From: Floridaenema evergladense BLCC-F167
GTDB lineage: Bacteria > Cyanobacteriota > Cyanobacteriia > Cyanobacteriales > Aerosakkonemataceae
Length of the DNA stretch: 32,000 nt
NCBI RefSeq assembly: GCF_041929205.1
Contig: NZ_JBHFNT010000101.1
Direction: 5' to 3' (one strand)
Shown: piece by piece, positions 8,411 to 29,697 of the stretch
Layout of the letters: each line of letters starts with the position of its first letter
Position numbering within the stretch: position 1 is the stretch's first letter
Notes under the pieces: model-generated
What the model saw: the letters and a program-made list of their open reading frames with translations, nothing else
Told to the model about the DNA's origin: nothing
Database searches by the model: none
Translations under genes and position numbers: made by a program

Positions 8411-9454
8411 TTACTTCATGGAAGCAGCCATTTGATCTTGAATCTGGCTTTTAGCTGATTTGAATTCGCTAGCTAACTGTTCGCGTTGTTGTTCGTTACA
8501 GTTGTTACCGATCGCAGCGAACATAGTGCTTTCTTCTTGACGAATGTGATCGCCAACTACATCCATCAGTTGCTTAATTCTTTCTTTGAACTGAGAATTA
8601 GCAGGATCGATCGACTTAATTTCATTCAACATCCGCTCCATTTCTGCTTGTTCATCAAACAGTTCTTGGGTGTTATCATCACCGTAGAAAGGGCGAACTT
8701 TTGGATAAACAACTTGTTCTTCCGCTTTGGCGTGTACTAACAAATCTTTGTACATTTGACCGAATAATTCTTCCAGTTTGGAAACATCTTCAGTCGCGCC
8801 CATTTCGGTGTAAATTGTGTTCACTTTATTGTGATCCAATCTGATTAAATCGCGAATATCCATGTCTTGTTTATCAGTGTTTTGGGTAGCAGCACTACCA
8901 AACACACCTGATAAAGCGGCGACTGCATCTTGCACTCTTCCCCAAAGTCCTTGTTCAGGGTCTTTGCCAGTTAATTCACGAGTTCCAAGAAGCTCAATTA
9001 CTCCTTTGAGTTGTTCTTGATGAGCGCGATTTTCAAAGTTAATGGTGTTTAAAGGTGCGATCGCAACTGCAACATCAGCACCCACAACTTGAGAGCATTT
9101 ATGAATTAAAAGCCCAGCCATTACTTGCTTATGCTTTAATAGTTCGTGCTGTCCTACTTTTTGGAATAATTTTAATTCCGAACCTTGCATTAATTGTTGA
9201 ACTTGCTCAATCATTTGCTTGGTGACATCGCGAGGTTCCGCCTTGACACCATACTGCACCATTACAGTTTCTAAAACACCCATATTCTTTCGATCGTCAT
9301 CCAACATCTTTTGAAAGCGATCGCGAACATCAGAGTCAGAAATTTCGGAAATAAACTGTTGCTCATTAGCAATTAACAACTTTTGAAGTTCTGCCATATC
9401 TGCCAATTCCATAGCAATAGCAGAACGTTTTACATCATCTAAACTTTTTACCAT
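8411..9454 (-). CDS. Two-domain protein: N-terminal helical (ferritin-like?) domain plus C-terminal hemerythrin HHE domain
   Basis: 347 aa. The C-terminal half carries LDHNKV...VHAKAEEQVVYP...GDHIRQEESTMF. It is a paralog of the next gene. Confidence 0.65.
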   Translation of the reverse strand: MVKSLDDVKRSAIAMELADMAELQKLLIANEQQFISEISDSDVRDRFQKMLDDDRKNMGVLETVMVQYGVKAEPRDVTKQMIEQVQQLMQGSELKLFQKVGQHELLKHKQVMAGLLIHKCSQVVGADVAVAIAPLNTINFENRAHQEQLKGVIELLGTRELTGKDPEQGLWGRVQDAVAALSGVFGSAATQNTDKQDMDIRDLIRLDHNKVNTIYTEMGATEDVSKLEELFGQMYKDLLVHAKAEEQVVYPKVRPFYGDDNTQELFDEQAEMERMLNEIKSIDPANSQFKERIKQLMDVVGDHIRQEESTMFAAIGNNCNEQQREQLASEFKSAKSQIQDQMAASMK

Positions 9455-9674: not shown

Positions 9675-10709
9675 TTATTTCATAGCAGCCATTTGGTCTT
9701 GCAATTTGCTCTTAGCAGCTTTGAACTCGCTCGCCATTTGTTGCTGTTGCGCGTTGCTGAAATTATCCCGAATTTTGGGGAACATTTCATTTTCTTCTTG
9801 ATTAATGTGATGCTGAGTCATCTGTGCTAACTGCTTAACTTGCTCTTTGAATTCAGCAGAACCAGGACTCATAGACATAATTTGATTGAGCATTCTTTCT
9901 TGTTCAGCTTGCTCTTGATACAAATCTGATGTCTTTGAGTAATAAGGACGTACTGCGGGATAAACAACTTGTTCTTCCGCCTTAGCGTGTGCTGTCAAAT
10001 CTTTGTAAAGTTGACCAAAGAATTCTTGTGCTTTTAATGGATCGTTCGCAGCTTCAATTTCCATGAACAAGGTGTTAGCTTTAGCATGATCCATGCGAAT
10101 AATTTGCTCAATTGTCATATCAGACATACCAGAATTTTGGGTGAGCACGCTACCAGCAACTCCAGAGAAAGCAGCGATCGCATCTTGAACTCTCGCCCAA
10201 ATACCTTGATCGGGATCTTTTCCAGTCAGTTCCCGCACGCCTAAAATTTCTAAAATACCTTTCAATTGTTCTTGATGTGCCCGATTTTCAAAATTGATGG
10301 TATTTAAAGGAGTAATTGCAGCTTCAATATCAGCACCCACAACTTGTGCAGCTTTATGAACTAACAATCCTTTCATTACTTGAGCGTGTTTCAAAAGTTC
10401 ATGTTGAGAGAACTTTTCAAATAAAGTTAACTCAGAACTTTGCATCATTTTTTGAGCTTTCTCAATCATTTCTTGAGTCGTTTGTTTTGGCTCTGCTTTG
10501 ACACCATATTGGACGATTACTGTGTCTAATACGCCCAGGTTTTTCTGGTCATCATTCAGCATTTCCCGCACTCGATCGCAGATTTCTCGATCTCCGCAAG
10601 CATTCAACAGCATTTGCTCATTGCTGATGATTAAGTTTTGGATAGCTTTCATGTCTGCTAATTTGGTAGCAATAGCAATGCGCTTGGTGTCGTCAAGAGT
10701 CGATACCAT
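9675..10709 (-). CDS. Tandem paralog of 8411..9454 (helical domain plus hemerythrin HHE domain)
   Basis: 344 aa and collinear with the 347-aa protein over its full length (for example NTINFENRAHQEQLKG, AHAKAEEQVVYP). By eye, about two thirds of positions are identical. Confidence 0.65.
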   Translation of the reverse strand: MVSTLDDTKRIAIATKLADMKAIQNLIISNEQMLLNACGDREICDRVREMLNDDQKNLGVLDTVIVQYGVKAEPKQTTQEMIEKAQKMMQSSELTLFEKFSQHELLKHAQVMKGLLVHKAAQVVGADIEAAITPLNTINFENRAHQEQLKGILEILGVRELTGKDPDQGIWARVQDAIAAFSGVAGSVLTQNSGMSDMTIEQIIRMDHAKANTLFMEIEAANDPLKAQEFFGQLYKDLTAHAKAEEQVVYPAVRPYYSKTSDLYQEQAEQERMLNQIMSMSPGSAEFKEQVKQLAQMTQHHINQEENEMFPKIRDNFSNAQQQQMASEFKAAKSKLQDQMAAMK

Positions 10710-14960: not shown

Positions 14961-16100
14961 TTACCCAGATACTTTTCGGAAACCTCGTAACCAACGATAG
15001 GGGTAATAAAAAGGAATAAGTAAAGGATGGGAAATTTGGTAACGATGCTGCATATAGGCGCGACTAGGAAATAGTGTATCCCAAGCGATATGTAAACGAG
15101 TCAACCAATCTTTTGCACCTGCTAAATCATCAAATAAACGTAAAACCATTGTTTGATTTTGCCAAGAATAGGCTCTAACTTCTTCCCAAGATGGTTTTAA
15201 AATAGCTAATTGCGATCGCACATTTCCCGGAATTTCCGCTTTCCATTCATCAGCTACTCGCAGCAAAATTTGTTGAACTGATAATACTAATTTGTAATTT
15301 TGGGCTTTGGTAATCACTAAATCCCAATCTATTTCTGTGGGGGAAAAAGCGATCGCCTCAGCAATATCATGCAACCAAAGTAAACTATTTCCTCCATGAT
15401 GTAACATTAAATGAGCGCATAGATAAACAATTTGTGCTTCATTACCTAAAATAAAAGCTGGAGAATCACTAATTTTAGTTAGTATTGCCGTTTCCCAAAA
15501 CCAATCAGTTAAAAAAGTCCGTTGATAATAAACCGGACTAACTAATTTCCAATGTAAATCTAAATTAACATTTACTAATCCCTGCTTACAATGAATTTCC
15601 TCATTGCGAAACTCTTCATTAAACCCAGATTGCATTTCCACACCTGCAAGCTGATAACCCAAATTTGCTAGAACTTCTCTCACAATTGCTAAATCTTCTG
15701 GGTGAATTAGTAAATCCAAATCTACCATCTGTCTAACAGCAATATCACGATATACTTTTTCTGCTAAAGCTGCACCTTTAAGGACAATTACATCTACTCC
15801 AACATCTGCCAATCTTTGCAACACCTTACCCAAATCTCGTAGCAACAAAGTATTGCGACAAGCATTTTGATAATAGGCATTGCGCCATTCTACTTGTACA
15901 TTTTCTGGCAACCAATCTTCGTTTCGCAAAATTCGATAAAGCAAGGGAGTCAAAGCTTCAATATATACAAATTCGCATAAATTATCCCAATCTAAATCAC
16001 TATTTTTCGCTATTTCTTGCGCCACTTTTAACGCTGTTTTATCCCATCTTCCCCGTAAAATTAAGGTTATTAATGATTGGTTTTCTTTTAGGTTGTTCAT
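14961..16100 (-). CDS. Nucleotidyltransferase-family protein (NTP_transf_5 type), last gene of the lasso cluster
   Basis: 379 aa. VIVLKGAALAEKVY...QMVDLDLLIHPED is the G-x-a...DhDhLh nucleotidyltransferase core seen in the 'uncharacterised nucleotidyltransferase' family that co-occurs with PqqD/HprK-like genes. It starts 6 nt after the ABC gene. Confidence 0.65.
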   Translation of the reverse strand: MNNLKENQSLITLILRGRWDKTALKVAQEIAKNSDLDWDNLCEFVYIEALTPLLYRILRNEDWLPENVQVEWRNAYYQNACRNTLLLRDLGKVLQRLADVGVDVIVLKGAALAEKVYRDIAVRQMVDLDLLIHPEDLAIVREVLANLGYQLAGVEMQSGFNEEFRNEEIHCKQGLVNVNLDLHWKLVSPVYYQRTFLTDWFWETAILTKISDSPAFILGNEAQIVYLCAHLMLHHGGNSLLWLHDIAEAIAFSPTEIDWDLVITKAQNYKLVLSVQQILLRVADEWKAEIPGNVRSQLAILKPSWEEVRAYSWQNQTMVLRLFDDLAGAKDWLTRLHIAWDTLFPSRAYMQHRYQISHPLLIPFYYPYRWLRGFRKVSG

Positions 16101-16106
16101 TAACTT

Positions 16107-17933
16107 TTAGTTTACCTGCATTTGAGTTTTCCACGATCGAGCATAACGACTATTAAGAGCTAATAAATCATCGTGGCACCCCGATTCTACAATTTCACCA
16201 TCTGACATAACATGAATGATATCAGCACGTCTAGCAATAGTAAAACGATGAGTGATTATAATAGCTGTTCTCCCTTTAGCTAAGTGACAAAATCGCTCTA
16301 ACCAATCTGCTTCAGCCCAAGAATCCATTGCGCTAGTTGGTTCATCTAAAATAATTAAAGGAGCTTGACGCAAAAAAGCCCTTGCTAAAGCTATTCTTTG
16401 CCATTCACCACCGCTAAGTTCCACGCCACCTGTAAATAATTTACCCAAAAGTGTATTGTAATTATCAGGTAAACGAGCAATTATTTCTGTTGCTCCCGCA
16501 GCTTCAGCAGCATTAGTTATTTCTGGCAATTTGGCAGTAGCTAATAAGTCACCAAGAGCTATATTTTCAGCAACAGAAGTATTATAATCAACTGGTTGTT
16601 GAAATAAAACAGTAATCAATCTTCGTAGGTTTTGAATTGGCAAATCACGTAAGTCAATGCCATCCCAAGTTATTTTTCCTTGTTGCGGATCGTACAAGCG
16701 ACAAAGCAATTTAAGCAAGGTACTTTTACCCGCGCCATTTGCGCCGACAATGGCTATAATTTTGCCTGCTGGAATAGTTAAATTAAAGTTTTCTAAAGCG
16801 GCTTTGTTGCTACCTGGATAACAGAAAGAAACGTTTTCAAAATTAATTCCTTGAGTTAAGTTTGTTGGTGTTAAATTTGGTGTTTGCGGATCTATGATTT
16901 GGGGGAATAATTCTAAAAACTCAAAAAGATTGCCTAAAAATAGCATATTACTGTAAACTTGACCTAAGTTTTGGAGCAAACTTCGCATCAATGTTTGACC
17001 TTGGTTAAAAGCTTGGTAAAATAATGCTAAATCTCCTAAAGTTACCCGTTTTTGTAAAACTTGCCATACCATCCAAGTTAAGGCAAAGGCGGTAATGGAA
17101 AGAGCGATCGCACCTGCACCCAAATTCGCCAAACTCTCATTCTTCGCCAACTTAACTTTTTCTGTACGTAACTTGCGCCGCAAACTCTGATAAGCAGATC
17201 GAAAATAATCGCCTAATTCAAAAATTCTTAATTCTGCTGCCGATTCTTTTTCTGTGAGTAACCAATGGTAATACCAGCTACGTCTTTCATCAGCTGTTGC
17301 TTTTAACCACCAATCATAATTTTGTTTACTGTAATTTAAAATTACCAAAAAAGCGGGTAAAGTACTAATTAATAATGCCGCAGGTATCCAAATACCAAAT
17401 TGGGTTAAAACTGCTGCCATTGCGATTAAAGTAATGCTATTTTGTACTAAACTTCCGCTATTTTCTAACAAGGCTGTTGGACGAAAAAGCGCATCTTGTC
17501 CGGCGCGATGTAGGCGATCGTAATATTCCGCTGACTCATAAAAAGCAAAATCCACTGACATTGCCTTTTTATGAATTAAACCACTAATATAATCCTTAAC
17601 TAATTCTGATTGAACTGTACGCACCCAAGTTAAGAAACTTCCCAATATTTGAGTTAATAATAAAACTCCTCCCATTAAAACAACTAAAATTAAAATTGGA
17701 ATCACCTTTTCCCTAGAAATGCCCACATTTAAAGTAACTACCAACCTATCAACTATTTGCTGAGTTAAATAAACTGTAGCAACTGGTAATAAACCCTGAA
17801 TAATTAGCAAAATTGCCCAAATAACAGTCCATTTTTTCGCAGCTTGCCAAACTAAATCAAAAGCTTTTACTAAATAAGGAAGCTGATTCAAACCATTTTT
17901 TAATTTCTGCTCTAAAAAAGTTAAATTTCTCAT
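16107..17933 (-). CDS. ABC transporter, fused permease/ATPase (lasso-peptide exporter, D-type)
   Basis: 608 aa with an N-terminal six-TM domain, Walker A GANGAGKST, signature LSGGEWQRIALARA and Walker B LIILDEPTSAMD. Confidence 0.85.
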   Translation of the reverse strand: MRNLTFLEQKLKNGLNQLPYLVKAFDLVWQAAKKWTVIWAILLIIQGLLPVATVYLTQQIVDRLVVTLNVGISREKVIPILILVVLMGGVLLLTQILGSFLTWVRTVQSELVKDYISGLIHKKAMSVDFAFYESAEYYDRLHRAGQDALFRPTALLENSGSLVQNSITLIAMAAVLTQFGIWIPAALLISTLPAFLVILNYSKQNYDWWLKATADERRSWYYHWLLTEKESAAELRIFELGDYFRSAYQSLRRKLRTEKVKLAKNESLANLGAGAIALSITAFALTWMVWQVLQKRVTLGDLALFYQAFNQGQTLMRSLLQNLGQVYSNMLFLGNLFEFLELFPQIIDPQTPNLTPTNLTQGINFENVSFCYPGSNKAALENFNLTIPAGKIIAIVGANGAGKSTLLKLLCRLYDPQQGKITWDGIDLRDLPIQNLRRLITVLFQQPVDYNTSVAENIALGDLLATAKLPEITNAAEAAGATEIIARLPDNYNTLLGKLFTGGVELSGGEWQRIALARAFLRQAPLIILDEPTSAMDSWAEADWLERFCHLAKGRTAIIITHRFTIARRADIIHVMSDGEIVESGCHDDLLALNSRYARSWKTQMQVN

Positions 17934-17963
17934 ATTACAATATTAGGTTTGTTGTAACAACTT

Positions 17964-18065
17964 TTCAGATTTTGCAGTAGGGGAAGTAGAACCTCCCCAT
18001 ACTCGTTCCCAGGTTCAACCTGGGAACGAGAAACAGAGGCTCCGCCTCTTGGTACAAGATCTGAG
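17964..18065 (+). mobile_element. MITE-like hairpin element (copy A)
   Basis: About 102 bp with terminal inverted repeats (tcagattttgc...ggtacaagatctga). It has a 12-bp perfect internal stem ctcgttcccagg-ttcaa-cctgggaacgag and two smaller hairpins. A second copy in opposite orientation lies at 23049-23151. Confidence 0.75.
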
Positions 18066-18073
18066 TAAAAATA

Positions 18074-19222
18074 TTATTTACTATATTTCTGAGCCAGATT
18101 TCCCACTCTAGTTAAAGCATCTTGCCAATTAGGGAAGCAAGTAGGAAATTTCTCCTGAATTTGAGTGGCGATATCACCCAACATTATACCGTTGCTCATT
18201 AATTCTAAAATTAAGCGATCGATCTGTCCATCTTCATTCAAACTCGGTAAATAAGCAGAACTACTCTTACGCAATTTTACTGGAGAAAGCGGCGTTGCGA
18301 AAAAAGTTGATTGCTGAAAATTCGCCTTAACTTGACTTAAATCACCCTGATGTAAAATGCAAGTATTCCATTGCCAAATATAATCATTACCAACTAAATT
18401 AGCTTGCAAATTTACCGAAATTTTATCACCAACTGCTAAAAAAACAGGCTTTAACCAAGGAAGAAAACCATTACCATAAACAAGTTCTGGCATCCCAGGC
18501 GCAGTAGAAAAACCGCTCCCTTCTGCCAATATTGCATCAAACCAAATACTTACTCCATAACCAGTTCCACTCCGCGCTACAGTCCAACTTAATTCGGCTC
18601 TAACATCAGGATTTTCTATAGTAGGATAATCTAAGATCGCCCAATATTGCGGCATAGTTAAAAGTTGCGCTGGTGCTATCCAACCTTTACCCCAATTATT
18701 AACTACAATTTGTCGTGCCGCTGTCATATTTAAACCACAAATATTGTGTTCCCAAACATTGACGATGCGATCGTACAAATGCGGCACTTCCACTACTGCT
18801 GCCCACAAGATATCACGCTGCGGAATTAGAATACCATCCTCAGTAAGCAACCGCTTTCTGGCATCAATAATTGTTGGAATATGTTGCCCAAATAATGGCA
18901 ACATTCCGCGAATATCGGAAACAATTACATCAGCAAGTTCGGGAATTTTTACGTTATTTGAAACATCTTGAATAAAAATAATGCGATCGCCATTTCCATT
19001 TTTTCTGGCAATTTCTTTTGCTACTTGGATAGCATCGCTAGGTTCGATCGCGTAAACTTTCCTCGCCCCAAACTGACAGGCAAGCAACGCAAAAATTCCC
19101 GTACCAGTTCCGATATCTACTACTATAGAATCAGGTTTTACTGTTTGACGCAGCGCTTTAACATAAGCATCCATGCGCCCTTTGTCAGCAATCATGCTGC
19201 CATATCCAGAAATGCTATACAT
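18074..19222 (-). CDS. Class I SAM-dependent methyltransferase with PRMT-like (protein arginine N-methyltransferase-like) architecture
   Basis: 382 aa. MIADKGRMDAY..., VVDIGTGTGIFALLACQFGARKVYAIEPS...AKEIARKNG...IIFIQDVS...ADVIVSD parallels PRMT motifs I/post-I/II (VLDVGxGTGILsmfAakaGAkkVyaiE...vDiivSE). It is followed by a beta-rich C-terminal domain of about 230 aa. Its start overlaps the kinase gene stop by 8 nt. Confidence 0.6.
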   Translation of the reverse strand: MYSISGYGSMIADKGRMDAYVKALRQTVKPDSIVVDIGTGTGIFALLACQFGARKVYAIEPSDAIQVAKEIARKNGNGDRIIFIQDVSNNVKIPELADVIVSDIRGMLPLFGQHIPTIIDARKRLLTEDGILIPQRDILWAAVVEVPHLYDRIVNVWEHNICGLNMTAARQIVVNNWGKGWIAPAQLLTMPQYWAILDYPTIENPDVRAELSWTVARSGTGYGVSIWFDAILAEGSGFSTAPGMPELVYGNGFLPWLKPVFLAVGDKISVNLQANLVGNDYIWQWNTCILHQGDLSQVKANFQQSTFFATPLSPVKLRKSSSAYLPSLNEDGQIDRLILELMSNGIMLGDIATQIQEKFPTCFPNWQDALTRVGNLAQKYSK

Positions 19223-20210
19223 TATTACTTAATTTGTGAAAATCCTCTAAAATTACATCACATAGTTTAGAAATATTTTCTGAATCTGCATGAGGTGTGA
19301 CTCTTCGCAAAGGAACTTTAGCTAATACCCGACTCAACAAATCGAATTCAGTAGCACGCATTTTTTTATCTAACAAATTGTTAGCGTAGGTGTTAGAAAT
19401 TAAGCTAATTAAACCATTGTTACTGGGTATTCTTTCCAAGAAAGGGGCTGATGGGGAAGTAGTGCGATCGCTCAAAATATAAATAACACCTAAAGGTAAA
19501 GGTAACTCCTGAAATTTATATTTTGGTTGAGTAAGATCTAGAAACCGTTTATCCCAATTTGGTGTCAAACAAGGCAAAGCATCCTCTTCACCGTACAAAG
19601 CTTTTACCGATGTAGGCCACAATCTTAAACGGGGATAAGCAGGTTGTACTAAAAAGTGATTATCCCTCTCTAAAATTGGGACAATATCATCAGATAATAT
19701 AGCAAAACCAGCTTGAGCAAAAGCTGCCGCTGTGGTAGATTTTCCCGCACCTGCTGGGCCAAGAATTGCGATCGATTTATCCTCTATTGCCACAGCAGAA
19801 GCGTGTAAACAAACAACGCCTCGCAACCGCAATACAAAGCCAAAAATTGGCCCCAGCAAATATGTAACAGTATCTTCTAAGGTCAAATTGTTAGGCCAAT
19901 TAGCCCAAATTTGAGTACCTTTTCGATCGATAATAAACTCAGTGCGATCGCCATATTCCCACCGCCAATAATCGCCATTTTCTAGTTGCCAAATTGTTAC
20001 CAGAGGGCGATCGTTTTCATCTTTATAACGACTCACCCACCAGATTTTTTGCTTTAACTCAATATTTGTCTGTAAAGCAGGAGGAAATTCATTAAAACTT
20101 ACCTGTACGTCTACTTTCGATACACTTGGTAAAACTATTAAGCCTGGTATGGCTAAATTAGAATTTAGATAGAGGCCGAAAATAGAATAAAAAAATGGTG
20201 CAGGTGTCAT
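19215..20210 (-). CDS. HPr-kinase-related (HprK-like) peptide kinase
   Basis: 331 aa. CLHASAVAIEDKSIAILGPAGAGKSTTAAAFAQAGFAILSDDIV matches the HprK C-terminal P-loop core (hHa..v...g.gvLi.G.sG.GKS.la..L...G..lvaDD). Confidence 0.7.
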   Translation of the reverse strand: MTPAPFFYSIFGLYLNSNLAIPGLIVLPSVSKVDVQVSFNEFPPALQTNIELKQKIWWVSRYKDENDRPLVTIWQLENGDYWRWEYGDRTEFIIDRKGTQIWANWPNNLTLEDTVTYLLGPIFGFVLRLRGVVCLHASAVAIEDKSIAILGPAGAGKSTTAAAFAQAGFAILSDDIVPILERDNHFLVQPAYPRLRLWPTSVKALYGEEDALPCLTPNWDKRFLDLTQPKYKFQELPLPLGVIYILSDRTTSPSAPFLERIPSNNGLISLISNTYANNLLDKKMRATEFDLLSRVLAKVPLRRVTPHADSENISKLCDVILEDFHKLSNNV

Positions 20211-20252
20211 GTTTTAATGTAATTAGCCTCCAGCTTGCAGCAATTACGACGA

Positions 20253-20417
20253 TTAAGCTACTGACTTATTTTGATTAGGAAGAGTGGGAGGCTGAGAAGG
20301 ATTATCACCTATAGAAGTAGGAATACTTTGACCTCTCGTTAGTTCCCGAATATCACCATAAACGAATAATTTGGGGCTTTGATATGGTGTTTTAGATAAT
20401 TTGTTAGGGGAGTGCAT
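20253..20417 (-). CDS. Lasso-peptide precursor (A gene), 54 aa, below the ORF-track size cut-off
   Basis: Hand translation gives MHSPNKLSKTPYQSPKLFVYGDIRELTR|GQSIPTSIGDNPSQPPTLPNQNKSVA*. The leader fits the lasso recognition motif YxxPxLxxxGxxxxxTx followed by Gly1 of the core. AAGGAA lies about 10 nt upstream. The ATG is the first start after an in-frame stop (20432-20430). It overlaps the 3' end of the cyclase gene by 14 nt. Confidence 0.7.
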   Translation of the reverse strand: MHSPNKLSKTPYQSPKLFVYGDIRELTRGQSIPTSIGDNPSQPPTLPNQNKSVA

Positions 20418-22242
20418 AGTATTGTTCCTTTACTATTTTATAACTGTGTTCTAACCAATAGTTGAGATTCAATGGTTGCAAATTAATGCAAACTTCATTA
20501 ATATCTTGTTCTGTTCCAGAAAGTAGGGGTATCGCATTTCGATCGACATATTTAGCCAAGTTTGGTACAGGTGTAAAACGATCGATCCCTGACGACTTAG
20601 CTTGCTGCAAAAGTGCAGTTATCGGATTACCCAACATTGGGGTTTTCGGACGCTGACGCACCAACTCCGGTAAAATGCCTCTCATTGCCACCCGCATTAG
20701 TTCTTTATGTAAGCACCAAGGCACTGGTGGAATTGCCAATAAGTAATTTACCAGACGCAGGTCAAAAAAGGGATACCGTACTTCCACAGGCAAACCTGTT
20801 ACTCCTGAATCGTAATTTTCAAACAGACAAGGCCAACCTGAACTGGTAAGCTGTTGATATGCCTCTGGTCGAATTGGATGAATTAGCGGTTTTTCCCGAT
20901 AAAACTGTTCCCATCTTCCAGGCAAGTCCAATTTAGCGGAAAAATCCGAGTTGATCCAGTTGGGATAAGCGGGTACTGGGGGACGAATACCTAACAATCG
21001 TTTCAAACGCGATCGCACTCCCGGTTGGGGTAATCTTTTATGAGAGACAACATACTCAACTGTATCTCTAATTAGGCGATCGAATTGCCAGTTTTTCATT
21101 AGATAAGTAAAATAAAAATAAGCGCCCCAAGAAGCAAAAACTGGATCGCCCCCATTACCATCTAACAAAACTCGGCTATGGGTAGCAATTTGTTTGAAGC
21201 GATCGGCAACAATTGCTAACAAAGAAAAACTGCTAGGTTCGGGACGTTGTAACAATGGTTGCTCTACTTTTGCAAACAAAGTATAACTGTCAGCAGCCAA
21301 GTAGTGAATTGGAATTCCCAAAGTTTCTGCTACTAATCCCGAATAGTAACGTTCTCGATCTGGAATCAATTGATCGTAGATAACGGTGAACGCTCTTAAA
21401 TCAAAATTATCACCTTTTTTACGAAAAAATTCGCAAGCTGTAGCCGCTATAGTTGTGGAGTCCATTCCTCCACTCATCGAGACAGCAATTTGATTTGTTC
21501 GCAGTCGGTCACTAACCGCTTTTTCCATTAATTCTTGAAAATTTTCTATGTAATCTTCTGCACGTTTATATCTAATAAAACCATCTGTAGGTAACGTCCA
21601 GTAACGTTTGATTTGAAGTCTTTCTCTTGACAAACTTAAATAATGTGATGGTGGTAAACGTTGGATATCGGCAAAAGTAGTTGTAGTAGGTTCTTGGTTA
21701 TAACCAAATAGTAAAAAATCTGCGATCGCCAAATCATTCAACTCATCTGAAACATCAGGATGAATCCTCACACAATTCAGCGTATTACTAAAAATAAAAC
21801 AATTCCCAACTTCTGCATAATAAAAAGGTTTCACCCCAAAATGATCTCTGGCGCAGAATAACTTTTGCTCTCTTTCATCCCAAATAGCAAAAGCAAAATC
21901 ACCCAACAAATATTGAACGCAATCTTCCCCCCAAACAAGATAAGCACGCAAAATTAATTCCGCATCTGTTCCCGCATTAATCTTTAACTTTTCAATTAAC
22001 TCCTCTCGCCCATCAATTCTCGCATCAGCAGTAATCCAAATCCCATCTAAATTAAAAGGTTGTTTCTCCTCTAAAGACTCTCTAGTAGTTTGCAACATTG
22101 TATGACCAAAACCAACATTACCATCTAACCAAATCTGTTGATAATCTGGCCCTCGATAGCTCATGAAATCGGTCATTTTCTGCAATAGATCGGGGTTAAT
22201 TGGTTGACCATTTCGATTAATTATCCCGACAATACCGCTCAT
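20404..22242 (-). CDS. Lasso-peptide macrolactam synthetase (asparagine-synthetase-B-like, C protein)
   Basis: 612 aa with an AsnB-like N-terminal domain (MSGIVGI..., no Cys2 nucleophile) and the ATP-pyrophosphatase motif VSMSGGMDST. It sits directly after B1/B2. Confidence 0.85.
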   Translation of the reverse strand: MSGIVGIINRNGQPINPDLLQKMTDFMSYRGPDYQQIWLDGNVGFGHTMLQTTRESLEEKQPFNLDGIWITADARIDGREELIEKLKINAGTDAELILRAYLVWGEDCVQYLLGDFAFAIWDEREQKLFCARDHFGVKPFYYAEVGNCFIFSNTLNCVRIHPDVSDELNDLAIADFLLFGYNQEPTTTTFADIQRLPPSHYLSLSRERLQIKRYWTLPTDGFIRYKRAEDYIENFQELMEKAVSDRLRTNQIAVSMSGGMDSTTIAATACEFFRKKGDNFDLRAFTVIYDQLIPDRERYYSGLVAETLGIPIHYLAADSYTLFAKVEQPLLQRPEPSSFSLLAIVADRFKQIATHSRVLLDGNGGDPVFASWGAYFYFTYLMKNWQFDRLIRDTVEYVVSHKRLPQPGVRSRLKRLLGIRPPVPAYPNWINSDFSAKLDLPGRWEQFYREKPLIHPIRPEAYQQLTSSGWPCLFENYDSGVTGLPVEVRYPFFDLRLVNYLLAIPPVPWCLHKELMRVAMRGILPELVRQRPKTPMLGNPITALLQQAKSSGIDRFTPVPNLAKYVDRNAIPLLSGTEQDINEVCINLQPLNLNYWLEHSYKIVKEQYYALP

Positions 22243-22706
22243 TATATTTTTACCTCGACTGGCAGAATTGCCTCAGCAAAAGGCGCAAAAAGTTGGTTAA
22301 CATCGCTGCGATCGTTCAAAATACAACCCTGATATTCTACCCAAGCATGAGCTTCTAAAAGTTCTTCTTTTTTACGTACACCAATTCGCAATTCACTTTC
22401 CATACCTTGTTGTCGCAACAACCAGCAAAGCAGCAATGATTTTTGTAAACAATTAGGTTTATATATACCATATCTACTAGCAATTTCTACTAATTTTGCG
22501 ATCGCCCTAGCTTCCTTAATTCCCTCCCTCGCTTGCACAACATATTTCCTGCGGTTAAGGTTAGCTATTTTCCCATAAAAGCTTCTAAACCCAAAACACT
22601 TTATTCCCAAAGCTACCAATGGCAGCAATAAAAATGCTTGTATCAGCAGCATTAGTTCTGACCAAGAAAGTTTTTTTAACTTACGCCAATTATTAACTGC
22701 TGACAT
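22242..22706 (-). CDS. Lasso-peptide leader peptidase B2 (transglutaminase-like Cys protease)
   Basis: 154 aa with an N-terminal TM helix, catalytic Cys context KPNCLQKSLLLCWLL and His context EAHAWVE. Its stop overlaps the cyclase ATG (TAATG). Confidence 0.8.
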   Translation of the reverse strand: MSAVNNWRKLKKLSWSELMLLIQAFLLLPLVALGIKCFGFRSFYGKIANLNRRKYVVQAREGIKEARAIAKLVEIASRYGIYKPNCLQKSLLLCWLLRQQGMESELRIGVRKKEELLEAHAWVEYQGCILNDRSDVNQLFAPFAEAILPVEVKI

Positions 22707-22974
22707 TAATCAACCCATGCTGTATCAGTTGTTGAAGTAAATTATACAAATCACTTTCTAACTGTTCGGGAACTACATCATATTCTGATAATAAAGTTTG
22801 GTATGCAGATGCGATCGTCTCCGAAGTAGAAAGCACTTCCCACATTCGAGTTCCCACCTCATCCAAACCAAAATAACGTTCGCTCTTCAGGTTTAGAATC
22901 ACCGACTCCCCATCTAATTCCCGAATTAAAACATCTTCTGGTACAGAAACTCGCATTTCAAAAGTAATACTCAT
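22693..22974 (-). CDS. Lasso-peptide B1 / PqqD-family RiPP recognition element
   Basis: 93 aa. VLIRELDGESVILNLKSERYFGLDEVGTRMWEVL...TIASAYQTLLSEYDV...LESDLYNLLQQLIQHGLI is a typical PqqD/RRE winged-helix pattern. It overlaps B2 by 14 nt. Confidence 0.8.
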   Translation of the reverse strand: MSITFEMRVSVPEDVLIRELDGESVILNLKSERYFGLDEVGTRMWEVLSTSETIASAYQTLLSEYDVVPEQLESDLYNLLQQLIQHGLINVSS

Positions 22975-22976
22975 TC

Positions 22977-23008
22977 GATTTTAGATTTTAGATTTTAGAT
23001 TTTAGACT
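22977..23008. repeat. Heptanucleotide tandem repeat (GATTTTA)x4, just upstream of the B1 gene
   Basis: gatttta gatttta gatttta gatttta gac, directly visible. Confidence 0.85.
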
Positions 23009-23048
23009 TTGACTATTGCCAAAAATATCTTATACCAAATTCCTCAAA

Positions 23049-23151
23049 CTCAGATCTTGCACCACGAAGCAGAGCCTCGGTTTCTCGTTCCCAGGTTGAA
23101 CCTGGGAACGAGGATCTGGGAGGTTCTACCTCCATTGCTGTAAAATCTGAG
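23049..23151 (-). mobile_element. MITE-like hairpin element (copy B, inverted relative to copy A)
   Basis: The reverse complement aligns end to end with 17964-18065 (about 85% identity by eye). It has the same core ctcgttcccaggttcaacctgggaacgag and the same termini (ctcagat(t/c)tt...aagatctgag). Confidence 0.75.
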
Positions 23152-23186: not shown

Positions 23187-23210
23187 CAAAAAAGGCTGTT
23201 CAAAACAGCC
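23187..23210 (-). terminator. Rho-independent terminator after the ferredoxin-like gene
   Basis: On the minus strand, ggctgtt-ttga-acagcc is followed by ttttttg. Confidence 0.6.
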
Positions 23211-23254
23211 CTAATTTCTATAATTTGCAACCAAGAAAGCATGGAAAACCAAAT

Positions 23255-27465: not shown

Positions 27466-29697
27466 GTGGTAATTGCGGCGATTAATGGGATGGGGGGAGT
27501 GGGGAAAACTGAGTTGGCGATTCAATATGCGACACAACATTTATTAGATTATCCCGGTGGGATTTGTTGGGTAAACGCGCAGGGACTTTTGGCGGGACTG
27601 CAAATTCTCAGATTTGCGGAAATTCAATTTAATATTGTTCCTCCTGATGATTGGGAATTAGCAGATAAGTTGCAGTATTGTTGGCAAAAATGGCAGCCGG
27701 GGAATGTGCTGTTTATTTTTGATGATGTGTTTAATTACAAACAACAAGTTAAACCTTTTTTGCCAAATCAATCTCGGTTTAAGGTGTTGCTGACGACGCG
27801 ATTTCAGTTTGATTCGACTTTGCAGCAGTTACGGTTGGATGTGCTGAAACCTTTGGCGGCGATGCGGTTATTAAAATCCATTGTTGGTAGAGAAAGACTG
27901 AAACAAGAACCAAAGATTGCCAGAAGTCTTTGTCAGTTTTTGGGATATTTGCCTTTGGCGTTGGAATTGGTGGGACGTTATCTCGATTTACAGCCGAATT
28001 TGTCTTTGGCTAGGTTGTTGCGGCGATTGGAAAAACAGCGATTAGAACATGCGGCTTTAATCGCGGCGAATCCTTTGATGCGGTATGAGTTTGGGGTGGA
28101 AGAGGCGATTAATTTAAGTTGGGAACAGTTGGATGAAAATGCGAAAAATGTCGGTTGTTATTTGAGTTTGTTTGCTTTGGCGGCGATTCCTTTTTCAACT
28201 GATGGGATAGAAGATGAAGATGAACAGGAAGCATGGGAAAAGGCGCTGCGGGATTTGCAACATTGGCATTTGCTTCAGGAAGTGCGTCAGGAAACCTATC
28301 GTTTACATCCTTTGATTCGGCAATTTTTGCAAAAGCGGTTGGATGAGTTGACTCAAGCAGAGGAAATGAAACGAAATTTTGCTGCACAAATCGTGGCAGT
28401 CGCAAAGCAAATTAAATATGACACTACTCGTGATGATATCATTAAGTTCAGCCCTTGGATTCCTCACTTGGAAGAATTGATGAATCTGGATAGCGATTTG
28501 ATTCAATATCTCAAAGATGAGGATATAATTAAGCCTTTCACAGGCTTAGGCTGGTTTTATGAAGGTCAAAGTTTCTATCAGCAGGCAGAAGTTTGGCTTC
28601 ATCAATGTGTAGAGGTGGCTAAACGAAGATTGGGTGAAAAACATAGCGATTTCTCCGACATCCTCAACAACTTAGCTAATCTTTACTGTTCCCAAGGACG
28701 ATACAGCGAAGCCGAACCATTATATAAGCAAGCTTTGGAAATCGATAGCCAAAGTTTGCAATCACATCATCTCCATTTAGCAAGACACCTCAACAACTTA
28801 GCCGCACTTTACTCTTCTCAAGGCCGTTACAGCGAAGCCGAACCATTATATAAGCAAGCTTTGGAAATCGATAGCCAAAGTTTGCCAGAAAATCATTCCC
28901 AGTTAGCTATTTACCTCAACAACTTAGCCAATCTTTACTATTTCCAAGGCCGGTACAGCGAAGCCGAACCATTATATAAGCAAGCTTTGGAAATCGATCG
29001 CCAGAGTTTGCCAGAAAATCATCCCAGTATAGCTACCCACCTCAACAACTTAGCCGGACTTTACGAATCCCAAGGCAGATACAGCGAAGCGGAACCATTA
29101 TATCTGCAAGCTTTGTCAATCCATCGCCAGAGTTTGCCAGAAAATCATCCCAGTTTAGCTACCCACCTCAACAACTTAGCCGGACTTTACGAATCCCAAG
29201 GCAGATACAGCGAAGCGGAACCATTATATCTGCAAGCTTTGTCAATCGATCGCCAGAGTTTGCCAGAAAATCATCCCGAATTAGCTGCCCACCTCAACAA
29301 CTTAGCCGAACTTTACCGTTCCCAAGGCAGATACAGCGAAGCGGAACCATTATATCTGCAAGCTTTGTCAATCGATCGCCAGAGTTTGCCAGAAAATCAT
29401 CCCAGTATAGCTACCCACCTCAACAACTTAGCCGAACTTTACCGTTCCCAAGGCAGATACAGCGAAGCGGAACCATTATATACAGAGTCATTAAACATTT
29501 GTGAATCCCAATTAGGAGTAGCTCATCGTGATACAATCACAGTTCGAGGAAATTATGCAGAGTTTTTGAGAGATTATGCAACCTTTTTGAAACAAAAGCT
29601 TGTTGAAAGTGGCGCTGATTTAGAAGTGTTGCAAAAGAACCCTTTGTTTTTGGAAATTATGAGGGAATTTCTCCCCGAAAATCTCCCAAATGAATAA
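27466..29697 (+). CDS. STAND NTPase: NB-ARC domain plus TPR array (NLR-like). Homology continues upstream to 27331 with no start codon
   Basis: Walker A GMGGVGKT, Walker B VLFIFDDV, KVLLTTR and the GYLPLALELVG (GLPLA) motif, followed by seven 42-aa TPR units. The codons at 27331-27465 read QRSSGREPIKLNPPFENIPPSNSIAFVGRDKQLTELHQLLQKNSQ. This is the usual pre-P-loop FVGRexEL helix, but it contains no ATG, GTG or TTG. Confidence 0.8.
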   Translation: MVIAAINGMGGVGKTELAIQYATQHLLDYPGGICWVNAQGLLAGLQILRFAEIQFNIVPPDDWELADKLQYCWQKWQPGNVLFIFDDVFNYKQQVKPFLPNQSRFKVLLTTRFQFDSTLQQLRLDVLKPLAAMRLLKSIVGRERLKQEPKIARSLCQFLGYLPLALELVGRYLDLQPNLSLARLLRRLEKQRLEHAALIAANPLMRYEFGVEEAINLSWEQLDENAKNVGCYLSLFALAAIPFSTDGIEDEDEQEAWEKALRDLQHWHLLQEVRQETYRLHPLIRQFLQKRLDELTQAEEMKRNFAAQIVAVAKQIKYDTTRDDIIKFSPWIPHLEELMNLDSDLIQYLKDEDIIKPFTGLGWFYEGQSFYQQAEVWLHQCVEVAKRRLGEKHSDFSDILNNLANLYCSQGRYSEAEPLYKQALEIDSQSLQSHHLHLARHLNNLAALYSSQGRYSEAEPLYKQALEIDSQSLPENHSQLAIYLNNLANLYYFQGRYSEAEPLYKQALEIDRQSLPENHPSIATHLNNLAGLYESQGRYSEAEPLYLQALSIHRQSLPENHPSLATHLNNLAGLYESQGRYSEAEPLYLQALSIDRQSLPENHPELAAHLNNLAELYRSQGRYSEAEPLYLQALSIDRQSLPENHPSIATHLNNLAELYRSQGRYSEAEPLYTESLNICESQLGVAHRDTITVRGNYAEFLRDYATFLKQKLVESGADLEVLQKNPLFLEIMREFLPENLPNE
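28663..29490 (+). repeat. Tandem 126-bp (42-aa) coding repeats, about 6.5 units, encoding the TPR array
   Basis: ctcaacaacttagc recurs at 28663, 28789, 28915, 29041, 29167, 29293 and 29419, with an exact 126-nt period. Adjacent units differ at only a handful of bases. Confidence 0.9.

Follow-up and report, generated by a model that had tools for sequence, protein, structure and literature searches.

A lasso-peptide operon of Floridanema evergladense encoding a kinase, a PRMT-fold methyltransferase and a nucleotidyltransferase-family protein

The operon and its genes

A 32,000-nt stretch of contig NZ_JBHFNT010000101.1 (assembly GCF_041929205.1) from the cyanobacterium Floridanema evergladense (family Aerosakkonemataceae), hereafter called the window, carries eight co-directional open reading frames (ORFs) on its minus strand at 14961-22974. 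Together these make up an intact lasso-peptide biosynthetic operon, with a predicted product and a predicted threaded topology. Besides the core lasso genes B1, B2, C and A, the region encodes a peptide kinase (K), a methyltransferase (MT) with the fold of a protein arginine methyltransferase (PRMT), an ABC exporter (D) and a nucleotidyltransferase-family protein (NT). In the direction of transcription the order is B1, B2, C, A, K, MT, ABC (D), NT, as follows:

22693..22974, minus strand: B1, a discrete recognition element for peptides that are made by ribosomes and modified after translation (RiPPs), of the PqqD family, 93 aa (profile and PDB matches)
22242..22706, minus strand: B2, transglutaminase-like leader peptidase, 154 aa (profile matches)
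20404..22242, minus strand: C, Asn-synthetase-like macrolactam synthetase, 612 aa (profile matches)
20253..20417, minus strand: A, lasso precursor, 54 aa (NF033521 lasso_leader_L3 match)
19215..20210, minus strand: K, HprK-like peptide kinase, 331 aa (motifs and HPr kinase alignment)
18293..19222, minus strand: MT catalytic part, residues 1-310, Rossmann domain plus beta-barrel with the type-I PRMT fold (profile, AlphaFold2 and Foldseek)
18077..18250, minus strand: MT C-terminal three-helix domain, residues ~325-382 (AlphaFold2 helices 330-343, 348-358 and 366-381)
16107..17933, minus strand: D, ABC exporter of the MsbA/McjD type, 608 aa (ABC_tran, E 7.8e-35; MsbA-like NCBIfam model, E 1e-82)
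14961..16100, minus strand: NT, NTP_transf_5 nucleotidyltransferase-fold protein of the PsmN family type, 379 aa (PF14907)

Neighbouring genes overlap by 14 nt (B1/B2), 1 nt (B2/C), 14 nt (C/A) and 8 nt (K/MT), or are parted by gaps of 42 nt (A-K), 140 nt (MT-ABC) and 6 nt (ABC-NT). This tight spacing, together with a terminator-like hairpin at 23192-23212 that sets the cluster apart from the upstream gene, fits a single operon. A preliminary description of this DNA, made from its letters alone, had already reported eight packed genes, and its coordinates, shared orientation, overlaps and gaps were all reproduced here. Its eight gene assignments were likewise recovered by Pfam and NCBIfam profile searches, which place B1, B2 and C in lasso families. 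Directly upstream of the B1 start codon, at 22977-23007, the heptamer TCTAAAA (minus-strand reading) occurs four times in tandem, and no obvious Shine-Dalgarno sequence is seen at the B1 start beside these repeats.

The core lasso enzymes are readily recognised. B1 matches Pfam PqqD (E 7.5e-17), the NCBIfam model lasso_PqqD_Bac (E 3.5e-17) and, in the PDB, the lasso recognition element TbiB1 (E 6.7e-9). B2 matches Pfam Transglut_core3 (E 1.8e-20) and NCBIfam lasso_biosyn_B2 (87.8 bits, cutoff 33), and the motifs NCLQKS, AHAWV and LNDRSD provide a candidate catalytic triad of Cys86, His120 and Asp132. C combines Pfam Asn_synthase and GATase_7 domains with a PP-loop, SGGMDS, at residues 257-262; its closest NCBIfam model is lass_lactam_cya, at E 7.6e-125 and 418 bits, which lies under the 525-bit cutoff of that subfamily model. 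PDB sequence searches returned no solved relative for B2, and none for NT.

The two proteins that would decorate the C-terminus through phosphate chemistry differ in how strongly profiles recognise them. K scores 23.8 bits against Pfam Hpr_kinase_C (E 3.6e-5, cutoff 33.3) and is also below the cutoff of NCBIfam HprK_rel_A (E 7.8e-9). Its motifs are nonetheless intact, with a P-loop, GPAGAGKST, at 151-159, LHAS at 135-138 and LSDD at 172-175, the last being the metal site (SDD 173-175). K aligns to the PDB HPr kinase over the P-loop and the DD pair, and P-loop, LHAS and SDD are invariant in the family alignment. NT matches PF14907 at E 5e-51 (174 bits) and carries LKGAA at 107-111 and a DxD motif, DLD, at 127-129; it is PsmN-like by family, and hexose transfer is a putative function.

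The precursor, its kinase and the wider cluster family

The precursor A scores 25.8 bits against NF033521 lasso_leader_L3 (cutoff 19), is 100% identical to an NCBI entry for Floridanema evergladense named "lasso RiPP family leader peptide-containing protein", and is the sole leader-motif ORF between 14 and 24 kb. The sequence AAGGAA sits 7 nt 5' of its ATG. The leader comprises residues 1-28 (20334-20417) and follows the motif Y12xxPxLxxxGxxxxxT27x; it reads Y12-Q-S-P-K-L...G21...T27-R28, so the YxxPxL...T(-2) pattern of lasso leaders is present. The predicted core is GQSIPTSIGDNPSQPPTLPNQNKSVA (20256-20333), and two sites within it matter for what follows:

20304..20306, minus strand: core Asp10 codon, predicted isopeptide acceptor (direct sequence reading)
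20262..20267, minus strand: core Lys23-Ser24 codons, the window's copy of the family [KR][ST] motif

The surroundings of MT homologues show that this arrangement is widespread. One genome per species was scanned with the MT-family alignment as query, and the 80 loci fetched were searched with the eight window proteins. Among the 33 informative loci (MT identity of at least 40% and enough flank), C lies beside MT in 29, K in 29, NT in 25, and all three together in 24. In an Aerosakkonema locus (L001), counterparts of the whole set of eight, 55-73% identical, follow one another as in the window. By record titles, the loci come mostly from Acidobacteriota, and also from Cyanobacteriota, Gemmatimonadota, Proteobacteria, Deinococcota, Binatia and others. 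Kinase, MT and NT are thus the standard set of a large, cross-phylum cluster family. The order B1-B2-C-A-K-MT is the usual one in these genome loci, and the distance between K and MT, which overlap by 8 nt in the window, is usually below 100 nt. The MT query found 2,887 matches at E<=1e-5 in a protein database clustered at 90%, and 1,249 representatives at 50% identity at E<=1e-30, a number that may include some canonical PRMT-like proteins. Nearly all of the best 150 representatives are ~380 aa long and matched over almost their full length.

Two expectations about this arrangement had been set down beforehand. The tailoring set had been called unusual, which holds against characterised systems and does not hold in genomes, where C, K and NT accompany MT in most informative loci. 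The gene order, with the precursor in mid-cluster, had been called atypical, and in fact it is the rule across the family. The searched literature yielded no characterised product of the family, and an earlier bioinformatic mention is possible.

The precursors of these clusters point to the site of kinase action. Leader-motif ORFs were collected from the genome loci and from a second scan, seeded by a kinase alignment, of metagenome contigs; in the latter, K was followed by 1.3 kb or more of downstream sequence at 52 loci, of which 33 had MT and 19 lacked it. A [KR][ST] motif followed by zero to three residues ends the core in 44 of 48 MT-linked precursors, and also in 15 of 18 precursors that sit beside related kinases in MT-less clusters. 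The motif is kept with or without MT and therefore tracks the kinase, which makes Ser24 of the window core (C-terminus ...N-K-S-V-A) the most likely phospho-acceptor, as predicted from sequence. Since MT-less clusters retain the motif, it was rejected as evidence for the target of MT.

The composition of the core tails differs somewhat between the two sets. The basic residue of the motif is Lys in 39 and Arg in 5 of the MT-linked cores, compared with 9 Lys and 6 Arg in the MT-less ones. A bulky residue after the motif is rarer in MT-linked tails (11/44 against 9/15; p = 0.025, from related sequences that are not independent), and many tails are almost pure Gly/Ala, DGGGGAAAGPKTG being a Gly-rich example. 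The tail in the window has no aromatic or other large plug residue. The scarcity of bulky residues and the abundance of Gly and Ala fit the idea, raised for pseudomycoidin, that a modification takes the place of the plug. Two precursor genes with different cores occur in each of eight related clusters (L003, L015, L019, L027, L030, L041, L053 and L159), and B1 is duplicated in two others (L038 and L039).

MT and NT, in turn, co-occur as an add-on module. Among the 26 metagenome kinase loci whose downstream sequence reached 4.5 kb or more, both were found in 14, MT alone in 2, NT alone in 3 and neither in 7 (Fisher p = 0.0085, ignoring relatedness and hence to be read as a trend only).

Methyltransferase chemistry and ring size

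The best Pfam match of the methyltransferase is PrmA (44 bits), with a weak match to PRMT_C, and the family profile matches PRMT2, PRMT1, PRMT6, PRMT8 and CARM1 over positions 9-277 (E 1e-38 to 1e-31). An AlphaFold2 model (pLDDT 88) retrieves PRMTs by Foldseek at E ~1e-30 with TM-scores of 0.76-0.86. The elements that bind S-adenosylmethionine (SAM) are conserved, namely Asp13 and Arg16 of the N-terminal helix, motif I (VDIGTGTG) and the post-I Glu60. The substrate side is another matter. The double-E loop, SEWMG...E in PRMTs, where its two Glu residues clamp the guanidinium, has become S-D103-[LI]-R105-G...H114 (S-D103-I-R105-G in the window): the first Glu is replaced by a near-invariant Asp103, the second position is variable (Gly112 in the window), and His114 is invariant. 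The THW loop is P-E-L-[IV]-Y-G in the lasso-linked clade (P245-E-L-V-Y249 in the window), whereas distant homologues with no lasso genes nearby (L069-L075, L080) retain SEW[LM]G..[DE]E and THW. With both loops replaced, the lasso-linked clade has the PRMT fold without the arginine-methyltransferase signatures that were looked for, and on these sequence grounds we would not call MT an arginine methyltransferase. The earlier label "PRMT-like" therefore describes the fold correctly and does not extend to the arginine-recognition residues.

Beyond the catalytic part, MT carries a three-helix C-terminal domain that is not present in PRMTs. This domain could possibly derive from a RiPP recognition element, specifically the helical half of a lasso B1, and serve in leader binding, an idea to be taken as a lead only. 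Comparison with lasso B1 by hhalign gave P = 0.005 and a probability of 7%, one homologue matched Pfam PqqD at E = 0.11, and a Foldseek search with the modelled domain found 6jx3_B, a lasso B1 with bound leader, at a root-mean-square deviation of 1.2 A over 48 columns (E = 5.4); the three comparisons are independent and agree in direction, but none of them is significant.

Several relatives of MT depart from this architecture. In one homologue of 633 aa (P0160), the MT catalytic part (1-317) is followed by a PhyH-type Fe/2-oxoglutarate dioxygenase domain in place of the helical domain, which hints that an MT may act on an oxygen installed by its partner enzyme. Some Acidobacteriota clusters have an extra, shorter MT paralogue with 28-31% identity to the window MT (L006:4520-5359, L008:11548-12366 and L109:2354-3193). 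In metagenome-assembled genomes labelled Chloroflexota, MT homologues of 46-53% identity adjoin not lasso genes but an ORF of ~150 aa (L031:9448-9906, L032:9310-9786 and L033:8928-9383; also L025 and L046), in which a SHOCT domain was confirmed in L031-L033. Several of these homologues are without the C-terminal helical domain.

What, then, would MT methylate? O-methylation of the phosphate, the sugar or the C-terminal carboxylate is one candidate, rather less likely than not; the missing Arg clamp, the new invariant residues Arg105 and His114, and the homologue fused to a PhyH-type dioxygenase speak in its favour. The chief alternative is that MT remains a working N-methyltransferase of PRMT/PrmA ancestry and methylates the basic residue of the [KR][ST] motif (Lys23 in the window) independently of the phosphate. 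Its type-I PRMT fold, a best Pfam match to a methylase of Lys and N-terminal amines, the higher share of Lys in the motif of MT-linked precursors and the still acidic first double-E position (Asp103) all speak for this. Nevertheless, the second Glu of the double-E loop and THW are gone throughout the lasso-linked clade while neighbouring non-lasso homologues keep both, Arg105 and His114 would be a better fit to an anionic or hydroxyl substrate than to a cationic one, and clusters without MT have the basic residue to the same extent. Methylation of Lys23 is nearly as likely as O-methylation, and some other acceptor takes the rest of the odds. A search for covariation between MT active-site residues and the choice of Lys or Arg in the precursor motif found none.

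Ring size poses a second question. Asp10 is the only acidic residue of the core, so that cleavage after the residue following Thr(-2) would lead to a 10-residue ring, with the acceptor outside core positions 7-9, where that of a lasso peptide is expected. In the literature covered, natural lasso rings have 7-9 residues, 10 having been reached only by engineering of fusilassin; a 2026 review names 9 aa as the largest natural ring, and no natural 10-residue lasso ring was found in the searched literature. Even so, the window core is not alone, as its closest relatives (P0122, P0123 and L001) likewise place the acceptor at position 10, in a conserved GDNPSQ or FDN context. Counted from Thr(-2), the acceptor of MT-linked cores is at position 9 in 25, at position 10 in 20 (20/48) and at position 11 in one; among MT-less cores it is at position 9 in 16 and at position 10 in 2. 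The single position-11 case is L124, whose core ASKTGIKSFTDSKFTFRTG (precursor motif from 1445) has its first acidic residue there. In one cluster (L027), a D9 core is encoded next to a D10 core, and each begins with Asn.

An ordinary ring would result if the leader were cut one residue later, with Thr at -3. The core would then start at Gln2 and close through a Gln1-Asp9 lactam of 9 residues. Counted from Thr(-2), the predicted rings span 8-10, apart from a single 7 and a single 11; with the shift, most of them would fall within the canonical 7-9. In addition, Gly nearly always occupies the second position in the E8 subgroup. Against it stands the near-universal Thr(-2) rule, to which Ile(-2) is the one validated exception in the literature covered. 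Moreover, MT-linked cores admit just N, T, S, A or G at position +1, all small or polar, whereas at +2 they vary widely (V, I, K, Q, N and more), a pattern that fits +1 as the residue read by the enzymes, and the D9 and D10 cores of L027 share their Asn start. A shifted cut is accordingly a real option, if on the whole an unlikely one.

The boldest proposal is a natural 10-residue ring (Gly1-Asp10), exceeding every natural ring on record, whose plug-less tail is held by a composite at Lys23-Ser24. In it, a phosphate from the kinase would be elaborated by the NTP_transf_5 protein and by a PRMT-fold MT that has exchanged arginine for another kind of acceptor, for instance an oxygen of a phosphate, a sugar or a carboxylate. 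As a whole this reading is tentative and rather unlikely.

The proposed pathway, the flanking repeat and known systems

Taken as a whole, the region probably belongs to a cross-phylum family of lasso operons in which the core set (B1, B2, C, A) precedes an HprK-like kinase and, in most members, a coupled MT and NTP_transf_5 module and an ABC exporter, working along the following lines. B1 would bind the YxxPxL leader, and the kinase would phosphorylate core Ser24 in the Lys-Ser/Thr motif conserved at the C-terminus, with the linear precursor as its probable substrate. The NTP_transf_5 protein and MT would then elaborate the phospho-site or its immediate surroundings. B2 would cut after Thr27-Arg28, C would close Gly1 onto Asp10, and the ABC transporter would export the product. 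Given the plug-less tail, we infer that the composite C-terminal modification could act as a steric lock that holds the tail in a large ring.

Some observations pull the other way. K is under the Pfam and NCBIfam cutoffs, so that its assignment rests on motifs and context. Another Ser or Thr could be the phospho-acceptor, and the core also has a Ser3, the site used by the kinases BsfK and LppK. The statistical trends are weak and drawn from related sequences. A methyl group adds little bulk, and a few MT homologues (L007, L031 and L032) lie away from any lasso genes, so that membership of the MT family is not strictly tied to lasso clusters. Finally, a repeat within the operon that resembles a miniature inverted-repeat transposable element (MITE) could hamper the expression of NT and of the exporter.

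That repeat occurs in two copies:

17965..18066, plus strand: MITE-like structured repeat, copy 1, ~100 nt, in the 140-nt MT-ABC spacer
23048..23150, minus strand: MITE-like repeat, copy 2, inverted relative to copy 1, between the hairpin at 23192-23212 and B1; 85-91% match

The preliminary description had placed a MITE between MT and the exporter, and the repeat itself is real, with two matching, strongly folded copies. Its ends, TCAGATTTTG...CAAGATCTGA, form imperfect terminal inverted repeats around three internal hairpins, and its folding energy is -54.6 kcal/mol compared with -30.4 for shuffled sequences (z = -6.4). A 25-nt core of the repeat is found nowhere else in the window beyond the two copies (0 chance matches expected), and it has no match in 160 fetched loci. 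MITE-like is a reasonable label, though only two copies are visible. The inverted copies bracket exactly the B1-B2-C-A-K-MT block (~5 kb) and leave the exporter and NT outside, an arrangement that may point to a mobile block or may be fortuitous.

It is conceivable that the insertion has left the cluster silent or decaying and without a product, since it puts a structured repeat and a terminator-like hairpin between two genes of the operon, MT and ABC. However, none of the eight ORFs is truncated, their catalytic motifs are intact and their lengths typical of the family, and the repeat is intergenic, which makes this very unlikely. Still less credible is that K, MT, ABC and NT are a separate, co-localised RiPP module that does not tailor the lasso peptide, as in the Bacillota LPP family, where a RiPP recognition element, an HprK-like kinase, an NTP transferase, an MsbA-like exporter and an SpI peptidase make a distinct RiPP, often beside paeninodin-like lasso clusters; the window has one recognition element, no signal-peptidase-like gene and a single leader-motif ORF in 14-24 kb, K begins 42 nt after the lasso precursor gene, and the K-linked motif sits in the lasso cores themselves.

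Outside the cluster, the flanks hold a gene of the CobN/Mg-chelatase family, hemerythrin-domain paralogues, and SRAP, YiaAB, ferredoxin and DUF1257 genes. These look like housekeeping genes or are otherwise unrelated, so the cluster boundaries given above are right. The hemerythrin-domain genes are tandem paralogues of ~345 aa with the domain at the C-terminus (window 8411-9454 and 9675-10709), and their DNA repeats match at 71-76% with a spacing of 1255 nt. Farther off, a gene for an NB-ARC plus TPR protein (window 27466-29697) contains at least seven tandem 126-nt repeats (28536-29591) of 65-85% identity, which are TPR units of 42 aa each.

Among characterised systems, the nearest counterparts are the paeninodin-type clusters (pade, thco and syan). 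They share with the window a split B1/B2, an Asn-synthetase-like cyclase, a YxxPxL...Tx leader, an ABC exporter and an HprK-like kinase that acts on a hydroxyl residue near the C-terminus, as would be the case in the window. Work on such kinases has shown that they phosphorylate lasso precursors before cyclisation and that B1 speeds the reaction. The paeninodin precedent invoked in the preliminary description is borne out for the kinase but does not carry over to the substrate: paeninodin-type substrates end in Ser and have 9-residue rings, whereas the window precursor ends K-S-V-A, with its predicted acceptor three residues from the end. The gene order also differs, the pade cluster is without a psmN-like nucleotidyltransferase gene, and no methyltransferase was found reported for the paeninodin-type clusters.

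The pseudomycoidin cluster (psm) of Bacillus pseudomycoides provides the precedent for NT. Like the window, it pairs a kinase with an uncharacterised nucleotidyltransferase-family protein (PF14907 in the window). PsmN, an uncharacterised NTP transferase, is needed for hexose on the phosphate, and the authors proposed that such bulky C-terminal groups lock a tail that would otherwise slip out of the ring. Pseudomycoidin differs in that it comes from a Firmicute, has an A1-D9 ring of 9 residues and a C-terminal Ser, and involves no methyltransferase, and the window NT is similar to its counterpart at the family level only. The Bradymonas bsf and Bacillota LPP systems also have an HprK-like kinase, an NTP transferase and a RiPP recognition element, on which their kinases depend, but these kinases use the non-C-terminal Ser3. 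The bsf leader has Ile(-2), LPP is not a lasso peptide and relies on a signal-peptidase-like leader peptidase, and both are without a methyltransferase.

Methylation of lasso peptides by SAM-dependent enzymes is known from other quarters. StspM and LasF, which form C-terminal methyl esters, are described as O-methyltransferases modelled on mitomycin 7-O-methyltransferase, and the cellulonodin-2 and lihuanodin enzymes are homologues of protein isoaspartyl methyltransferase (PIMT). The window MT instead has a type-I PRMT fold and a C-terminal helical domain. With the eukaryotic type-I PRMTs (PRMT1, 2, 6, 8 and CARM1) it has in common the Rossmann domain plus beta-barrel, Asp13/Arg16, motif I and Glu60, but where they keep SEWMG...E and THW it has SD[LI]RG...H and PEL[IV]Y, together with the added three-helix domain. 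The lasso tailoring reactions named in reviews from 2021 and 2022 and in a JACS perspective of 2026 comprise phosphorylation, phospho-glycosylation, methyl esters at the C-terminus and aspartimides made by PIMT; nothing done by a PRMT-type methyltransferase is among them. In keeping with what had been said of this locus at the outset, the searched literature contained neither a characterised lasso pathway with a PRMT-fold methyltransferase nor any characterised lasso peptide from a cyanobacterium. In 2019 a bioinformatic analysis had already noted a lasso cluster of cyanobacterial origin that includes a PsmK homologue.

Lasso peptides are prized as very stable scaffolds, and new tailoring reactions widen the range of products that can be built on them. 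The window offers a clean example, from a cyanobacterium, of a family that soil Acidobacteriota carry in abundance and that also occurs in several other phyla, with a combination of tailoring genes that is common in genomes and for which no characterised example was found. What makes it valuable is above all the PRMT-fold enzyme, the coupling of MT to NT and a ring that may have 10 residues. Both that coupling and the linkage of the [KR][ST] motif to the kinase give concrete, testable assignments. A single solved member would give a function to an MT clade of ~1,250 representatives at 50% identity, clarify the role of NTP_transf_5 proteins in RiPP pathways, test modifications as a substitute for bulky plug residues and settle the matter of natural 10-residue rings. 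If true, the logic of a 10-residue ring with a composite lock would extend to hundreds of clusters in Acidobacteriota and other phyla.

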